In this document: positions 12,481-26,834 of the stretch, piece after piece | Layout of the letters: each line of letters begins with the position of its first letter | Numbering within the stretch: the first letter of the stretch is position 1 | Assembly: GCA_963847185.1 (NCBI GenBank) | Contig: CAWJYV010000007.1 | Location: forward strand, 160,001 to 224,000 | Direction of reading: 5' to 3' | Length of the DNA stretch: 64,000 nt | Origin: an uncultured Methanosarcinaceae archaeon | GTDB lineage: Archaea; Halobacteriota; Methanosarcinia; Methanosarcinales; Methanosarcinaceae | Program-made: the position numbers and the translations under genes | The notes under the pieces: model-generated | What the model saw: only the letters and a program-made list of their open reading frames with translations | Databases searched by the model: none | Told to the model about the DNA's origin: nothing

Positions 12481-13859
12481 TTAGAATACAAGTCCGAGGT
12501 CTTCGAGCTTCTTTCTTGCCCCATCGTAGACCTGCATGTATTCGTCAGTTGGAGTCACTGTCTTTACGTCGTAGCATTCCTGGAAGGTCTTTCCTGCGGG
12601 TGCGTTTGCGTAATTCTTCTCGTAGAGAGCTACGAGTTTGTCAAGGATTACGTTAATCTCTGCAATATCGACACCGGCAGTTGCTCTTGCAACTTCTCCC
12701 ATCATCCTGGCTTCCATACCAGTTGTCTTGTCAGTTACGACGCCTTTTGCTGACGCAACACCTGAGAGGATTTCTCTTCCTGATGCAGTGTCAGTAATGG
12801 ACTGGGCTGAAGCTTCAAGAAGACACATCTCAGTACACGGACCTGCACATGGGTAGTACTGGTTTCCTGAGAGAATATCTGTAAACTCGGAAATTGTTGC
12901 ACATGCCCATCCTGCGATTATCAGGGTTTCCCTGGTGTTGGTTGACCCCCAGCGGATGTGGACAGGGCCGTCAAGGTGCCAGCTAGCGCTGCTCATGACA
13001 ACGGAGTTAATGTGGGTTGCAATGTCAACGATTGTGGTTTCTTCAATTCCGCCTGCATACCCTCCGAAAATCGGCATCTGTTCATCCATAATGATGTCGC
13101 TGTTTCCTTTGTAGTGAGCAATAACAGCGATTGCATCAAGATCGATCTTGAGTTCATTTAGCTGAGAGACTTCGTGGCTGTCCGTGGAGCCATCTGGCCG
13201 CCAACGCAGTCAGATGATATATTTCCCTGAGCAGACAGGGAAGTCTCTGGGCCCTATATGCCCATGCCTGGGCGGCCTGCCATTGCGCATGCCTGCTTAA
13301 TCAGGCGGGTTTCTGTCTTTGCGGCAAGTACTTCATATGGGCTGCCTGGTATAGGAGGCTTTCCACGAACAGAAGTCATGACCCCATCTACGATTGTGTC
13401 AACTTCCTTTTCTAGAGCATAGCTCATGTGAACAGGCATGAACACATCTTCGGAAATCGGAGAGCCAGTAGGGCCGCCCTGGACGATGGGCTTTCTCCTG
13501 TCTCCAACGCTTCTCTTCCTTACGTTTACTGCTTCTCTGCCTGTACCGAGGGTAAATTCTTTCTGGACATTGTTGATTGCGTCCCAGATTTCAGCTTCAG
13601 TGTACTTTACGATCCTGTGTGTGTCGGTACAGTAAATACCGCAGTCAAGGAGCATCTCGAAGCCTGCATTGAAGAGTTTTTCCATCATATCCCTGTCCGT
13701 AGGAATAAACTCTCCTTTGAAGTCAAGCCCGTACTTATGCTTGAGCTCCATTGCCTTCATTGGGATCTTCATAAGGTCCCAGTCATCCTGGGTGCATTTT
13801 TCTCCTACTTTTGCTCTGTCGTAGAAGTCATAGCAGTCAACTGATTTCCTAAAAGTCAT
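12481..13859 (-). CDS. mtmB: Monomethylamine:corrinoid methyltransferase, Pyl at codon 202 (TAG 13254-13256), with an apparent frameshift near 13189-13190
   Basis: MTFRKSVDCYDFYDRAK...AGRPGMGI-TAG-GPETSLSAQGN...DSHEVSQLNELKID...MDEQMPIFGGYAGG. Span is 1379 nt, 2 nt longer than a 458-aa MtmB. Confidence 0.95.
13165..13248 (-). promoter_or_regulatory. PYLIS-like stem-loop 3' of the mtmB amber codon
   Basis: AGAGACTTC (13248-13240) pairs with GAAGTCTCT (13173-13165), enclosing CCCTG/CAGGG and CATCTG/CAGATG helices. Starts 5 nt after the UAG. Confidence 0.7.
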
Positions 13860-13879: not shown

Positions 13880-14533
13880 TTATTTCATAACATCGAGTGC
13901 AACCTTTGCAGCTTCTGCAGCATTTTCTGCAGTTGCGTCAGCTCCGATTTCTGTAATCCATTTATCGGATACTGGAGCTCCTCCGAACATGCACTTTACA
14001 CTGTCCCTGAGGTTTTCTTCCCTGAGCCTGTCCATGAGATCTTTCTGGCCGAGCATGGAAGTGGTCATGAGGGCAGAGCCTACCAGGAGAATCTTTTCTC
14101 CCTTGTGCTTTGCGGCTTCTTCAACAACGGTTTCGTTAAGGACGTCAACTCCAAGGTCAAGGATCTGGAAACCGTTTGCTCCGAGCATGGTAGTAACAAG
14201 CCTGTGCCCAATATCGTGAATATCTCCTTCTGCAACAAAAGTGATCGCAAGTCCAGTTTCATCTCCTTCTTTCTTGTTCTTCGCAAGTTCAGGAGTGAGG
14301 ACTTCCATTGCATTGCTCATTGCCTTTCCAGACATCATGATTTGAGGCAGAAATACTTCGGCGGCTTCGAACTTGTCACCAACGATTTTCATTCCAACGG
14401 AAAGACCTTTTGTAATAATGTCAATAGGTGGAATTCCTGCAGCTAGGGCTTCCTTGCATAACTGTGCAGTGCCTGCGACGTTCTGATTTACGATCGCATC
14501 GCGTAACTTATCAAAAATCTCTTGATTTGCCAT
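13880..14533 (-). CDS. mtmC: Monomethylamine corrinoid protein
   Basis: MANQEIFDKL start after GGAGG SD, B12-binding EGDIHDIG, SALMTT, MFGGAP. Confidence 0.95.
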   Translation of the reverse strand: MANQEIFDKLRDAIVNQNVAGTAQLCKEALAAGIPPIDIITKGLSVGMKIVGDKFEAAEVFLPQIMMSGKAMSNAMEVLTPELAKNKKEGDETGLAITFVAEGDIHDIGHRLVTTMLGANGFQILDLGVDVLNETVVEEAAKHKGEKILLVGSALMTTSMLGQKDLMDRLREENLRDSVKCMFGGAPVSDKWITEIGADATAENAAEAAKVALDVMK

Positions 14534-15010
14534 TTTTAAACCTCCATCGAATTCGCTGTTTATGCGGTGTCGTTGGGATGCACAATGTCTCTGAATCTCT
14601 GTGGAGTGGACAATTCTCGCAAAGGTTTGACTGCCTATATATAGGCCCAAGCTCCGCTAGCTAAAAAAAGCATTCGCATGGGGTCCTTACTCTGGTGCAA
14701 ATCCCTGCTGCCTTATTTCAGCCATTAGGCATAGGGGACTTCCTTTACAGGATTTAATTGTCCATAAAAAATTATTCACTGCCATTTGCCATTTCTAATC
14801 TGAACAGCGTCCAGATATTTGTGAATAATTTCTTTCTCCTGACATTGCTACCTGGGAATTTATTCGCTGGGGACTGCAAATTGATTCATTTTCCAGTCGA
14901 ATTAGCAACTAATGTCCCAAATTTTCCCAAACAGTATACCTGCTGGAACTGCGAAAGGAATTTTCCTGAGTATCCAGACATAAATTCCTATATCAAAGAT
15001 GAAAATTATA

Positions 15011-21909: not shown

Positions 21910-22689
21910 TTACAGGACCGAATAAAGCATAGATGCTGTTCCTATTCCAAGAGGCTCCATTATAAGCTCCACATTGTATTTTTTTCTGAGCTCATCGGAA
22001 ATTGCACAGGGAATTCCTGGTGTGGAGATTACACAATTCTTCGACAACGCGACTTCAGGAATTGTATCCTCACATGGCGTCGCCTCAAAAATAATTGAAA
22101 ACTTTCTTGAGCTTGAAGGGTCAAAAGGGATAATCCCGAGATTGAAGACAGCTTTCTCAAGAAGTGCTTTGTCAGCATCGTAACCGTACACCCTGAAACC
22201 TTTTTGCACAAAATGAGCCGCTCCTGGAAATCCTACTTTTCCGAGTCCTATCACAAGTACGTCTTTTGAGTCGGCTTTCAGGTGCCTGGATGCGATTTCT
22301 GCATAAATTATGCCTGTACAGGGCTGATTATTGGCTATTTTTCCGTTTTTGAGGTTGTGAGCAAGGAAAGTGTGGTCATCAGCCATCAGAATGATTTCCG
22401 CACCTTTTTGTACTGCCTCATAATAGCCGCTGACATCAGGCATATCTGTAACAAAACTCTCAAACCCGAAATATTTTGTAATTTCGTTGAGAGAAGCCGA
22501 AAAACTTCCTATTATTCCATTTCCTGAAGTTACAGGTATAATTCCTACCCTTTCACAACAAAGAGACGTGCCGTAAAGGGCTTTACAGATTTCTTTTATA
22601 TCAAGCCCTGTTACTCTATGAACGGCAGAATCTGCTTCTTTAAGCTGTCTATTAATATTATTCAGGTCTTCTGGGGTTAAAAGTGCCAT
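21910..22689 (-). CDS. pylD: Pyrrolysine synthase (3-methylornithyl-N6-lysine dehydrogenase)
   Basis: MALLTPEDL, ILMADDHTF, Rossmann VIGLGKVG, EPLGIG. GGTGA SD before ATG 22689. Confidence 0.96.
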   Translation of the reverse strand: MALLTPEDLNNINRQLKEADSAVHRVTGLDIKEICKALYGTSLCCERVGIIPVTSGNGIIGSFSASLNEITKYFGFESFVTDMPDVSGYYEAVQKGAEIILMADDHTFLAHNLKNGKIANNQPCTGIIYAEIASRHLKADSKDVLVIGLGKVGFPGAAHFVQKGFRVYGYDADKALLEKAVFNLGIIPFDPSSSRKFSIIFEATPCEDTIPEVALSKNCVISTPGIPCAISDELRKKYNVELIMEPLGIGTASMLYSVL

Positions 22690-22724
22690 TTTTATCACCA
22701 TTTTTATTTCGGAGATTTTTGAAT

Positions 22725-22798
22725 CTCTTTCCACTTCTTTTCCTACTTCTCTTTCCACTTCTTTTCCTGCTTCTTTCCCTACTTCTCTTCCTACTTCC
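22725..22798. repeat. 12-bp tandem repeat (about 6 units) in the pylC-pylD spacer
   Basis: CTCTTTCCACTT, CTTTTCCTACTT, CTCTTTCCACTT, CTTTTCCTGCTT, CTTTCCCTACTT, CTCTTCCTACTT. Confidence 0.85.
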
Positions 22799-22799
22799 C

Positions 22800-23891
22800 T
22801 TATACCGCCGCTCTGAAGTTTTCCTTTAATATCAAAAGTCCTTTCCTTTTTCTTTCGCCGGCTTCTTCCCTATCCTTGCCCCAGAAGACCAGAGTAAATA
22901 CAGGATTCTCTCCTTTACAGAGGAAAATCTCAATTCCGGGTTCTTCATAATATTTCCCGTAATCAGTTCCCATAGAAAGTACCTGTTCTCCTACAGGAAT
23001 GAGAGATCCGTTTTCTCCAAGCATTAAATGTTCGTAAATGCAGTATTTGTTTTCAGGAAGAGTTTTGATTTCCTCAACACCTTCGCCAAAGGCGCGGAAC
23101 AGAAGCTCTATCAGGTTAATGCCTGAAGAATAATAGACAGCAGTTGGGGTCTGGCTTGGAAAACGAGCATCTATTTCAATTATTTTGAGCCCTTTCGGGC
23201 CTGAGATCGCTTCCACATCCATGATCCCTTTTAAGGAAAGATTTGCTGCAAGGGCATAGGATATCTCCCTGAAATCAGGGTCAAGAGGAAGAGGGGTAAC
23301 CATATGACAGTCGTAGGTTTCGTCAATATGCACAAGGGTTTCTTTTACTACAGCAAAGCGGTTTCCATCTCCGACTACTTCAAGGGAGACAACCTCTCCT
23401 TCCACGTATTCCTCAATTAGCATGCCGGATTCAAGATCTTTGAGCTCTTTTTCGTCATAAATAATCCTGGCTCCCACACTGCTGCTCTCGCAGGGAGGTT
23501 TTACAAAATAAGGGGGTTCTAAGGGTTTATCTGCCGGAGTCGGAACTCCTATGGATGCAAAATATTCTTTTGACTTCTTCTTGTCCCTGCTGATCCAGTA
23601 TGCATCAAAATCGAAGAGTACAGGGCAGGAGGACTTATCTTTTAGGGAGCTCAGAAACTCAATACATTCAAGGTTCTCGTTTACCGGTAGTAAAGCATCA
23701 GCTCTTTTTGAGAGCTCAAGGAGCTTTTCAGGCTCCTTTGTTACATCAAAACAGTAAAACTCATCAGCGTAATTCCGGATAAGTGCCTGCGGATTTTTAT
23801 CTACTACAATCACTTTCATTCCGGCTTTTTTAGAGAGATACACAGCCTCGAAGCCCTGGAGTTTTCCACCTACAAGACATATCGTTTTCAG
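22800..23891 (-). CDS. pylC: 3-methylornithine--L-lysine ligase (ATP-grasp), probable CTG start
   Basis: KTICLVGGKLQG, VKPPCESSSVG, EIDARFPSQT. CTG at 23891 gives 363 aa, the usual PylC length. Confidence 0.95.
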   Translation of the reverse strand: MKTICLVGGKLQGFEAVYLSKKAGMKVIVVDKNPQALIRNYADEFYCFDVTKEPEKLLELSKRADALLPVNENLECIEFLSSLKDKSSCPVLFDFDAYWISRDKKKSKEYFASIGVPTPADKPLEPPYFVKPPCESSSVGARIIYDEKELKDLESGMLIEEYVEGEVVSLEVVGDGNRFAVVKETLVHIDETYDCHMVTPLPLDPDFREISYALAANLSLKGIMDVEAISGPKGLKIIEIDARFPSQTPTAVYYSSGINLIELLFRAFGEGVEEIKTLPENKYCIYEHLMLGENGSLIPVGEQVLSMGTDYGKYYEEPGIEIFLCKGENPVFTLVFWGKDREEAGERKRKGLLILKENFRAAV

Positions 23892-23892
23892 T

Positions 23893-24945
23893 CTAGCACC
23901 CCAGGAAGGCTTCAAACTCATCCTGTTTGGCAGGCTCCATCCCCATAATTTCAAGCCTTTTGATCACGCTCTGGATATCTCTGTCCCGCTCTTCGAGATC
24001 ACGGTCATAGTTTGCAACACCTTCCAATCTGGAATCTGGGGGGAGGATAGAGGTAACTATATTTGCCCCTGCGTTCAGGCGGTGAACCATACCGTCTATG
24101 CCTTCAAGGTCAAGGGAGGCTGGAATAAGGCATGTGGGAAACATTAATCTGAGAATCGAGATGATTTTGAGTTCCGAGAGATTTGATTTCTCCCTGAAAC
24201 CTGAAAGTGGGGTTCCTTCCTGGGGCAGGAAGGTCATAACCCTAACCATGTCAGGATCGTTTGTTTTCATTCCTCTCAAAGATAGAATGGTTGATTCTAT
24301 GTCGTTTCCAACTCCAGTGAGAATCCCGTCTTCTATGCAATATCCCTGCTCTTTTGCAAAGCGGCGGGCGTTGACCCTTCCTTCAAATGACTGTCCAACC
24401 CTGAGTCTCTGGTAGAGTTCAGCATCATAAGTTTCCTGATAAAGGGCAAAGAAGTTTGCTCCTTTTTCCCTGGCTTTGAGAAGAGTTGCATTATCCATCA
24501 CTCCTGGAGAGATCATTATGGGAAGCTTGAGTTCTTCCTTTACCATCTGAACAAGCTCAACAAAGCGTTCAGGCTCTTCGTGGTAGTAGGGGTCTTCTCC
24601 CATGGTCAGATCAATCATGTGAAAACCTGCCCCTTTTAAGACTGTACAGATTTCTTTGATCTCCTCTCTGGCCAAACGGTAGCGGTTAATCTCGTTTTTA
24701 CAGTTATAATAACAAAAAGCACACTGATTTTTACAGTGAGTGGAGAAATAGATAAAACAGTTAAGAAATACCCTGTTGCCGAAATAGTGATTTCTCACCT
24801 TCCGGGCAGCGTAATAAAGCTTTTCCAGATCTTCTTCGGACTCAAGGGAGAGAAGAGCCCTCAGATCATTGTCAGATAATTGAAAACCTTCAATTATTTT
24901 TTCTCCGAACCTGTCAGGTTCGTCAAGTGCCATTTTTTGGATCAA
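23893..24945 (-). CDS. pylB: Methylornithine synthase (radical SAM), ends in TAG
   Basis: CKNQCAFC motif, DLTMGED, PASLD, GANIVTS. TTG start after GAGGGTGA. Confidence 0.97.
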   Translation of the reverse strand: MIQKMALDEPDRFGEKIIEGFQLSDNDLRALLSLESEEDLEKLYYAARKVRNHYFGNRVFLNCFIYFSTHCKNQCAFCYYNCKNEINRYRLAREEIKEICTVLKGAGFHMIDLTMGEDPYYHEEPERFVELVQMVKEELKLPIMISPGVMDNATLLKAREKGANFFALYQETYDAELYQRLRVGQSFEGRVNARRFAKEQGYCIEDGILTGVGNDIESTILSLRGMKTNDPDMVRVMTFLPQEGTPLSGFREKSNLSELKIISILRLMFPTCLIPASLDLEGIDGMVHRLNAGANIVTSILPPDSRLEGVANYDRDLEERDRDIQSVIKRLEIMGMEPAKQDEFEAFLGC

Positions 24946-24989: not shown

Positions 24990-25193
24990 TTAGGGACTGG
25001 TTGCCATTTTAGTATCTTTTCCTGCTTTTTTGTAATTTTGAGTTTTTATTGTCCTGTTTTTGCCATTATTTTTCTATCCTGTTTTTACGTTCTTTTTCGC
25101 AGTTGGTTTTTTACCTTTTTTGCCAGTATATTTTTGCCATTCTATCTTTGCCAGTTTATGTTTTTGCCATTCTGTTTTTGCTCTTTTTGCCAT
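24990..25193 (-). other. Candidate Lys-rich upstream ORF with in-frame TAG, within degenerate TGGCAAAAA repeats
   Basis: ATG 25193, TAG 25074-25076, TAA 24990-24992. 13 Lys in the first 39 codons. No clear SD. Confidence 0.25.
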
Positions 25194-25250: not shown

Positions 25251-26552
<1,302 letters not shown>

Positions 26553-26762: not shown

Positions 26763-26834
26763 TGGCGGAAACCCCGGGAATCTAACCCGGCTGAACGGAT
26801 TTAGAGTCCATTCGATCTACATGATCCGGTTTCC
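26763..26834 (-). tRNA. pylT: tRNA-Pyl (CUA anticodon, encoded CCA)
   Basis: GGAAACCGGATCATGTAGATCGAATGGACTCTAAATCCGTTCAGCCGGGTTAGATTCCCGGGGTTTCCGCCA, anticodon at 26802-26804. Confidence 0.98.

Follow-up and report, generated by a model that had tools for sequence, protein, structure and literature searches.

We analysed a stretch of 64,000 nucleotides (nt) from an uncultured Methanosarcinaceae archaeon (contig CAWJYV010000007.1, positions 160,001 to 224,000; called the window below) with regard to the junction between pylB and pylC, two neighbouring genes for the synthesis of pyrrolysine (Pyl). The minus strand of the window holds a complete pyrrolysine cluster, in which pylT, pylS, pylB, pylC and pylD are adjacent and co-directional, and PylS, PylB, PylC and PylD all exceed the NCBIfam equivalog cut-offs. 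The tRNA-Pyl gene pylT, with anticodon CTA (CUA), was placed at 26763..26834 by ARAGORN, and is followed by pylS for pyrrolysyl-tRNA synthetase (25251..26534; NF007083, 719.7 bits), pylB for methylornithine synthase (23893..24945; TIGR03910, 577 bits), pylC (22800..23891; TIGR03909, 552 bits) and pylD (21910..22689; TIGR03911). The pylB gene starts with TTG and encodes 350 amino acids (aa) before the amber codon TAG at 23893..23895. The protein ended by this UAG matches the 350-aa chain of PDB entry 3t7v from end to end, with the identical C-terminal residues LGC. For pylD an open reading frame (ORF) of 282 aa opens at 22758, the TIGR03911 match runs from residue 25 on, and the start is most likely the ATG near 22689.

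Read on the minus strand, the junction is ...CTG GGG TGC TAG A CTG AAA ACG ATA TGT..., with TAG at 23895-23893, one A at 23892 and the putative pylC start codon CTG at 23891-23889, a position that holds ATG, TTG or GTG in relatives. An earlier reading of the window from its letters alone (the sequence-only reading) had given the junction in the same way, and its count of 363 aa for PylC from the CTG agrees with both TIGR03909 and PDB entry 4ffl, a 363-aa chain that begins at this codon and with which the PylC of the window aligns from residue 1. Five nt ahead of pylC codon 1 lies a Shine-Dalgarno (SD)-like hexamer, GGGGTG (23897..23902), supplied by the Leu-Gly-Cys codons of pylB, and the amber codon makes up three of the five spacer bases between this hexamer and the pylC start. 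The pylS, pylB and pylD starts of the window carry similar SD-like motifs at 4-5 nt, namely AGGGGTGA with a spacer of 4 nt before the ATG of pylS, GAGGGTGA with a spacer of 5 nt before the TTG of pylB, and GGTGAT with a spacer of 4 nt before the ATG of pylD. These motifs match what we take to be the 3' end of the 16S rRNA. The junction has two features of a translationally coupled gene pair: an SD motif lies within the 3' end of pylB at working distance from the pylC start, and the two co-directional genes have stop and start a few nt apart (+1 in the window and in 49 other loci of the survey described below). Since the TAG stands in the spacer between GGGGTG and pylC codon 1, a choice between termination and readthrough would be physically placed to affect pylC initiation.

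From an alignment of 17 PylC sequences we retrieved the best 80 of 183 related loci in a collection of species-representative genomes. Both genes were placed in each locus by tblastn and the junctions were read frame-aware. One locus lacked pylB on its contig, and the remaining 79 loci together with the window gave 80 junctions; it should be noted that Methanohalophilus, Methanohalobium, Methanimicrococcus, Methanomassiliicoccales and bacterial pyl clusters were outside the survey. The PylC closest to that of the window, among the best 80 of 183 relatives, was that of locus L004 (93% identical). The arrangement seen in the window, TAG followed by one nt and pylC codon 1 (TAG+1), was found at 50 of the 80 junctions. 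At 24 junctions the stop overlapped the start as NTGA (N, any base; distance -4), three had TAG with a 13-nt overlap, and a single locus (L077) had TGA directly abutting ATG, while two (L055 and L057) were left unassigned by the script. The distance from stop to start was between -13 and +1 nt in all evaluated relatives other than these last two.

A tree of PylB plus PylC was built from 77 rows with the junction residues excluded (IQ-TREE quick search, LG+G4). TAG+1 was present in 40 of the 42 rows of the Methanosarcina clade, window included, and across the deepest split of the tree in all nine rows of a Methanococcoides-like clade; it was also found in one Methanosalsum locus outside the tree. 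Only three changes between TAG+1 and the other arrangements are needed to explain the 77 rows. Free variation of the stop codon among relatives, which the sequence-only reading had named as counting against its proposal, was hence not seen. The two exceptions within the Methanosarcina clade are L003 and L077. At L003:9990-10010 the TAG has become TAT and one base is inserted, and the stop is thereby shifted to a TTGA overlap. At L077:9990-10010, where TGA abuts ATG, pylB and pylC share a frame. Outside these, L058:2970-2990 has ATT as pylC codon 1, and its pylB extends 13 nt further, to a TAG.

Among the 50 TAG+1 junctions the hexamer 5 nt ahead of codon 1 was GGGGTG in 35, and the Gly codon inside it was GGG in 46, though the last PylB residue uses 10 different codons. 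The one base that separates TAG from the pylC start (23892 in the window) was C in 24, A in 14 and G in 12 of these loci, and never T, which could relate to the termination context.

The statement of the sequence-only reading that pylC has no nearer ATG, GTG or TTG start was wrong. The pylC frame is open upstream as far as a TTG at 23954 (-21 codons), and within the 3' end of pylB it contains an in-frame TTG at 23913-23915 (-8 codons) and an ATG at 23919-23921 (-10 codons), both on the minus strand; downstream in-frame candidates are a GTG at codon 17 and an ATG at codon 25. Nor did the weak CTG hold up as the key element. Codon 1 was ATG in 20, TTG in 19, CTG in 9 and GTG in 2 of the 50 TAG+1 junctions, so CTG is not conserved, and it arose independently at least three times (the window with L004, L017, and a six-member clade within which it persisted through speciation). 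The start codon changes fast, with eight changes within the Methanosarcina clade. At the 24 NTGA overlaps, on the other hand, codon 1 was ATG in 22, TTG in one and GTG in one, which gives non-ATG starts at 30/50 TAG+1 junctions vs 2/24 NTGA overlaps. As the SD stands at the proper distance from codon 1, and no conserved SD precedes the TTG, a pylC start at codon 1 seems favoured. As to codon 17 (23841-23843), the GTG of the window encodes Val, and the remaining 41 of the 42 Methanosarcina-clade rows have Ala at this position, which lies in the conserved N-terminal stretch GGKLQGFEAAYL.

The sequence-only reading had also claimed that every other intact gene ends in TAA or TGA, and we could confirm that pylB is the sole gene of the window ending in TAG. 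A greedy set of 47 window ORFs of at least 100 aa, from which the overlap filter dropped pylB, gave TAA in 23, TGA in 22 and TAG in 2 cases, the latter being an ORF that lies antisense within pylB and the N-terminal piece of mtmB, where the TAG is internal. A laxer filter adds two TAG-ending ORFs of 106 and 145 aa, neither with a Pfam match. In the surveyed loci, background TAG use was 24 of 598 ORFs (4.0%) after removal of pylB and of ORFs with long readthrough, in a set that includes some spurious ORFs. The TAG stops of other genes were kept in just 1/9, 2/12 and 6/11 orthologues, and the catalytic Pyl codon of mtmB was kept in 21/21. Other +1 junctions in the surveyed loci had TAA in 14, TGA in 13 and TAG in 2 cases, which are not independent as orthologous pairs recur; as they mostly use TAA or TGA, the +1 spacing does not require TAG. 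Counted on the Methanosarcina clade, TAA/TGA changes of the stop number at least 6 for pylS, at least 6 for pylC and at least 7 for pylD, and the pylB stop has changed 2 times. The junction thus appears non-random from the comparison among relatives and not from the window by itself, and on that comparison the TAG ending pylB is very probably maintained by selection.

If the TAG is read as Pyl, PylB gains O-TENDMSCRWKTPGLRGCVSL and ends at the TAA 23832-23830, 59 nt into pylC, as the sequence-only reading had described. The extension (23830..23892, minus strand) comprises 20 codons past the Pyl position and runs in the -1 frame of pylC. Tail length was 14 aa in 8, 20 aa in 26, 23 aa in 6 and 42 aa in 9 of the 49 scored loci. 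The number of synonymous changes per pylC codon was 6.2 in the overlapped codons 2-21 vs 6.6 in codons 22-90. As synonymous change is not reduced in codons 2-21, we rejected selection on the tail peptide, and the suggestion that the tail might alter PylB itself found no sign of such selection (6.2 vs 6.6 changes per codon) to lean on. Two marks of a genuine Pyl-coding UAG can be compared here: a UAG at the same position among orthologues is found (40/42 in the Methanosarcina clade, 50/80 overall), and conserved homologous sequence past the UAG is not, the solved PylB ending just before it. Within the overlapped region, PylC Ser20 (codon 20, 23832-23834) is encoded by TCT in 33 of the 34 loci having Ser, with one change vs about 6 per codon elsewhere; this TCT together with the next Lys codon creates the TAA that closes the pylB readthrough frame. 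PylC Gln12 is CAG in 42/42.

We also considered RNA structures and frameshifting at the junction. No conserved hairpin of the pyrrolysine insertion sequence (PYLIS) type was found just 3' of the UAG with RNAalifold in 39 Methanosarcina-clade junctions (-8 to +72; z = 0.14 vs column shuffles), in line with passages of a preprint (bioRxiv 10.1101/2024.09.30.615893) by which PYLIS was not detected in PylB. RNAalifold indicated a possible long-range helix on the minus strand (23847..23916), in which 23911-23916 and 23898-23906, the latter with the SD, would pair with 23854-23862 and 23847-23852 in pylC codons 11-15. This SD-sequestering helix was pairable in 94.4% of cells in 49 sequences, against a shuffled mean of 94.6%, and its covariation score was reached by 439 of 500 shuffles; both arms encode conserved residues. 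The fold of the junction region in the window is ordinary (minimum free energy z = -0.03). A +1 frameshift like that of prfB, fusing PylB to PylC, was rejected, as the sense codon just ahead of the TAG varies and is unable to re-pair: in the 50 junctions it is TGC in 32, TGT in 4, CAA in 4, ATG in 3 and CGA in 2, with TTA, TAC, TTC, CAT and CTT once each (10 forms overall).

Several facts needed for an interpretation are published for Methanosarcina acetivorans. According to the relevant passages of PMC12626013, UAG gives both truncated and full-length RdmS in this species; the same paper and its own preprint version remark on the C-terminal TAG of PylB and call it 'tempting' to think of a tuning of Pyl biosynthesis. 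Pyl in PylB is attributed there (PMC12626013) to O'Donoghue et al. 2014, and in the preprint bioRxiv 10.1101/2024.09.30.615893 PylB is one of the proteins whose Pyl is listed as confirmed by experiment. The pylB TAG, the incorporation of Pyl there and a possible Pyl-tuning role are hence already published for M. acetivorans. The parts of PMC13663744 on tRNA charging report that about 21% of tRNA(Pyl) is charged on methanol and about 58% on trimethylamine (TMA), that UAG is the strongest pause site, being the codon most occupied by ribosomes under either growth condition, and that UAG dwell time depends on tRNA(Pyl) charging. In the gene-level data of that study the log2 fold changes for TMA over methanol are 2.03 by RNA-seq and 1.75 by Ribo-seq for pylB, 2.11 and 1.57 for pylC, and 2.17 and 1.51 for pylD. 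In our full-text literature search we found no description of the geometry, conservation or coupling of the pylB-pylC junction, and the pylB passages of PMC3941956, PMC8318568, PMC9499178 and PMC8211752 contain nothing on the pylB stop codon. What appears to be new here is the conservation of TAG+1 over some fifty species-level lineages in at least three genera, the position of the TAG inside the pylC ribosome-binding site with its coupling geometry, and the predominance of non-AUG pylC starts together with the unconstrained tail.

The layout of the junction suggests, without proving it, a built-in gauge of pyrrolysine supply. Tentatively, and at somewhat under even chances, we put forward that the UAG is kept by selection in the pylC ribosome-binding site, where it would tie the output of PylB and PylC to the supply of Pyl-tRNA. 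The binding site would consist of the SD-like GGGGUG, C-UAG-A and the start codon, and a ribosome finishing PylB would have two fates. Should the release factor win, the 350-aa PylB would be released and PylC begun one base downstream, either by the same ribosome through termination-reinitiation or by a new ribosome on the SD just cleared; the identity of the start codon would matter little at pylC, and non-AUG starts (UUG, here CUG) would be tolerated. Should Pyl-tRNA(Pyl) win, Pyl would be inserted and the ribosome would pass on for 14-42 codons (20 here) in the -1 frame through the pylC start before it stops, giving a tailed PylB and presumably skipping or occluding pylC initiation. [quoted passage not shown] More Pyl-tRNA would then mean less PylC per PylB and less tail-free PylB, so that the simplest outcome would be negative feedback. 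Our own data show how the junction is built, that TAG+1 is deeply conserved, that an SD-like motif is present and that the tail peptide is unconstrained. The dual decoding of UAG, the substrate-dependent charging of tRNA(Pyl) and the presence of Pyl in PylB are drawn from the papers cited above; we infer the coupling, the loss of pylC initiation upon readthrough and the direction of the feedback. The crystallised forms, a UAG-terminated 350-aa PylB and a PylC from codon 1, count in favour of the proposal.

Several observations weigh against it. Full pyl clusters are kept in L003 and L077, which lack the TAG, and in the 24 loci with an NTGA overlap; because such lineages retain the complete cluster, any function of the TAG is modulatory and not essential. 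Stop codons changed at most twice in 4 of 11 control genes, three of which have invariant TAA or TGA, so the low turnover of the pylB stop is not significant in itself and the argument rests on the codon being TAG. An open TTG or ATG lies upstream at all nine CTG junctions, compared with 23 of the 31 other Methanosarcina junctions (Fisher p = 0.16), and we found no documentation of CUG initiation in Methanosarcina in the literature that we consulted. The translation of PylC per PylB on TMA relative to methanol, computed by us from the PMC13663744 data, shifts in the predicted direction by about -0.27 log2, which is within the propagated standard error of about 0.32 and comes from gene-level values that do not resolve the junction. 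Finally, the economy of a feedback that lowers PylC while PylB goes on being made is not obvious.

Of the other explanations, the plainest holds that the TAG has no regulatory role and is an old accident, tolerated through a backup stop within 14-42 codons and held in place by a local constraint unrelated to Pyl, such as a feature of the ribosome-binding site or the mRNA. We regard this as unlikely, yet as an account to be taken seriously: 3 of the 11 control genes nearby likewise keep their stops unchanged across the Methanosarcina clade, the tail is unconstrained, lineages without the TAG exist, and off-frame stops are expected about every 20 codons anyway. Against it, pairing with the anti-SD would not require the A and G of the TAG, and these positions are noncoding if pylC starts at codon 1. 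A single transition would turn TAG into TAA, the use of TAG is depleted across the genome to about 4%, TAG stops of other genes decay in this same set of species, other +1 junctions have TAA or TGA in 27 of 29 cases, and TAG+1 occurs on both sides of the deepest split of the tree. One could instead suppose that the true start of pylC is an upstream one (ATG 23921 or TTG 23915) and that pylC overlaps pylB, with the TAG kept as PylC coding sequence GCT-AGA (Ala-Arg) and the CTG a plain Leu codon. Gene callers and NCBI records do choose such starts, with PylC forms of 371-384 aa, the frame of the window is open with both ATG and TTG, and an upstream in-frame start is present at 9/9 CTG junctions. 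We nevertheless consider this account very improbable. Of the 31 non-CTG Methanosarcina junctions, eight offer no upstream start that could be used or carry a stop in that frame (Fisher p = 0.16). In the putative extension, codon positions 1 and 2 vary exactly where pylB has its wobble positions. There is no conserved SD ahead of the TTG, in contrast to GGGGTG with 5 nt ahead of codon 1, and the solved PylC begins at codon 1. An upstream start may hold for the choice of the CTG species, but it leaves the conservation of the TAG in species without such a start unexplained.

Two further accounts give the UAG a function of another kind. The tailed PylB might itself be the purpose, with Pyl and 14-42 further residues altering stability or activity, so that Pyl supply would control the first enzyme of the pathway post-translationally. 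This agrees with the reported Pyl in M. acetivorans PylB (PMC12626013; bioRxiv 10.1101/2024.09.30.615893) and with passages of PMC8225853, according to which PylB is easily degraded and its steady-state level sets a limit on Pyl output in E. coli; the Ser20 TCT that gives rise to the TAA backup stop (33/34 loci) also speaks for it. Against it, the tail has no conserved length (14, 20, 23 or 42 aa), no added synonymous constraint (6.2 vs 6.6 changes per codon) and free variation in those residues that pylC third positions encode, and we think the account fairly improbable. Alternatively the UAG might be kept as a slow stop and not as a sensor of Pyl, with the long dwell on the pylC SD and start enforcing 1:1 termination-reinitiation at a weak start whatever the Pyl level. 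The high occupancy of UAG in both conditions in M. acetivorans (PMC13663744), the excess of non-ATG starts at TAG+1 (30/50 vs 2/24 at NTGA) and the tight spacing of stop and start in every lineage (-13 to +1 nt) would all suit such a role. As UAG dwell depends on tRNA(Pyl) charging in the same study, the pause would still carry information on Pyl, and relatives couple the two genes tightly by an ordinary ATGA overlap; we judge the slow stop likewise fairly improbable.

The proposed gauge at the pylB-pylC junction resembles several known systems in part. In the +1 frameshift of the release factor 2 gene (prfB), an in-frame stop is decoded according to the abundance of a factor tied to the product of the gene, and an SD-like G-run lies upstream. 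The pylB junction shares this logic and the upstream SD-like G-run; unlike prfB it has no slippery P-site codon, and the alternative to termination is readthrough by Pyl-tRNA and not frameshifting. In leader-peptide attenuation, as in trp and his, the ribosome at codons for the amino acid of the pathway reports the supply of charged tRNA. A comparable, cis-acting and attenuation-like loop with the terminal pylB UAG as its sensor is possible, though on balance somewhat unlikely. In contrast to the trp and his leaders, the sensor codon ends a full-length enzyme gene, the output would be translational, and a terminator/antiterminator structure was unsupported by our fold and covariation analyses. 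The coupled pairs of Haloferax volcanii and E. coli (ATGA, TGATG), as described in parts of PMC6728339 and PMC10666635, are likewise co-directional within one operon, with stop and start close together and the SD in the upstream gene's 3' end, and the pylB-pylC junction of 24/80 relatives is such a classic NTGA overlap. According to the relevant part of PMC10666635, about 20 nt between stop and start nearly abolishes termination-reinitiation in both organisms. The junction of the window differs from these pairs by its spacing of +1 instead of -4 or -1, and by a stop that is an ambiguous codon readable by a dedicated tRNA, hence coupling could be conditional. With the C-terminal TAG of M. acetivorans PylB it shares the gene, the codon position and the tuning idea; the species is another one, and the window has CTG at pylC codon 1. 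The passages of the M. acetivorans papers that concern this TAG amount to one sentence and give no mechanism, cross-genus conservation, +1 spacing, position in the ribosome-binding site or non-AUG starts. The catalytic UAG of mtmB (13254-13256) and the pylB UAG are both conserved (21/21 vs 40/42), and what follows them differs, with 256 conserved codons in mtmB and 14-42 unconstrained codons in pylB that merely overlap pylC.

Further features were observed around the cluster. The spacer between pylC and pylD (22690-22799, minus strand) is about 110 nt long and purine-rich, with a near-repeat like GAAGTAGGAAAAGAAGTGGAAAGAG present twice; given this distance between pylC and the pylD start, pylD would not be tightly coupled to pylC. 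Between pylS and pylB (25058-25192, minus strand) five exact copies of TGGCAAAA and additional near-copies lie within 135 nt upstream of pylB. The whole 64-kb window has nine exact copies, five of them in this spacer, and we speculate that they may form a candidate binding array for a regulator of a pylBCD promoter. The mtmB gene (12481-13859, minus strand), beside a corrinoid-protein gene at 13880-14650, is split, with the break near 13185-13186. Its N-terminal part of 201 aa covers positions 1-195 of the Pfam MtmB family and ends at the expected Pyl codon TAG 13254-13256, while the remainder (MtmB positions 218-450) is out of frame owing to a 2-nt insertion about 70 nt past the TAG when compared with L001, L006 and L009. 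The orthologues of 20 relatives continue beyond the TAG, mostly for 256 codons, and the split in the window may reflect a pseudogene, a sequencing error or another cause.

Two TAG stops in the relatives may also be mentioned. A DUF1638 ORF of 265 aa downstream of the pyl cluster (L014:12066-12863), with a readthrough of 5 codons, has TAG in 6 of 11 Methanosarcina orthologues and TAA in 5, and is an example of a TAG stop that turns over. In the Methanolobus loci L044 (3552-6410), L048, L051 and L055 a sensor histidine kinase of 952-954 aa with the architecture Cache-HAMP-PAS-HisKA_2-HATPase ends in TAG a few kb upstream of the pyl genes, in L044 with an ATG one base past the TAG. This kinase recalls RdmS, the Pyl-containing kinase of M. 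acetivorans.

How Pyl-decoding archaea sense and balance the supply of Pyl against an ambiguous UAG is left open in the corresponding parts of PMC12626013 and PMC13663744. A UAG-containing regulator is postulated in a passage of one of the two, and the pylB UAG in the pylC ribosome-binding site is a concrete candidate. Taken together, the new findings turn a one-line speculation into a specific and testable mechanism, and should the function prove not to be real, the pattern of conservation would call for an explanation all the same. If the proposal is true, it would also be of relevance for the heterologous expression of pylBCD in genetic-code expansion, where the native junction enters hosts that do or do not suppress UAG. 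It would further make a recoded stop codon a new input for translational coupling and autoregulatory recoding. It would mean that the arrangement has been kept since before the divergence of Methanosarcina and Methanococcoides, and it would be the first natural recoded stop through which an operon senses the supply of the non-canonical amino acid that it makes and that the stop encodes.

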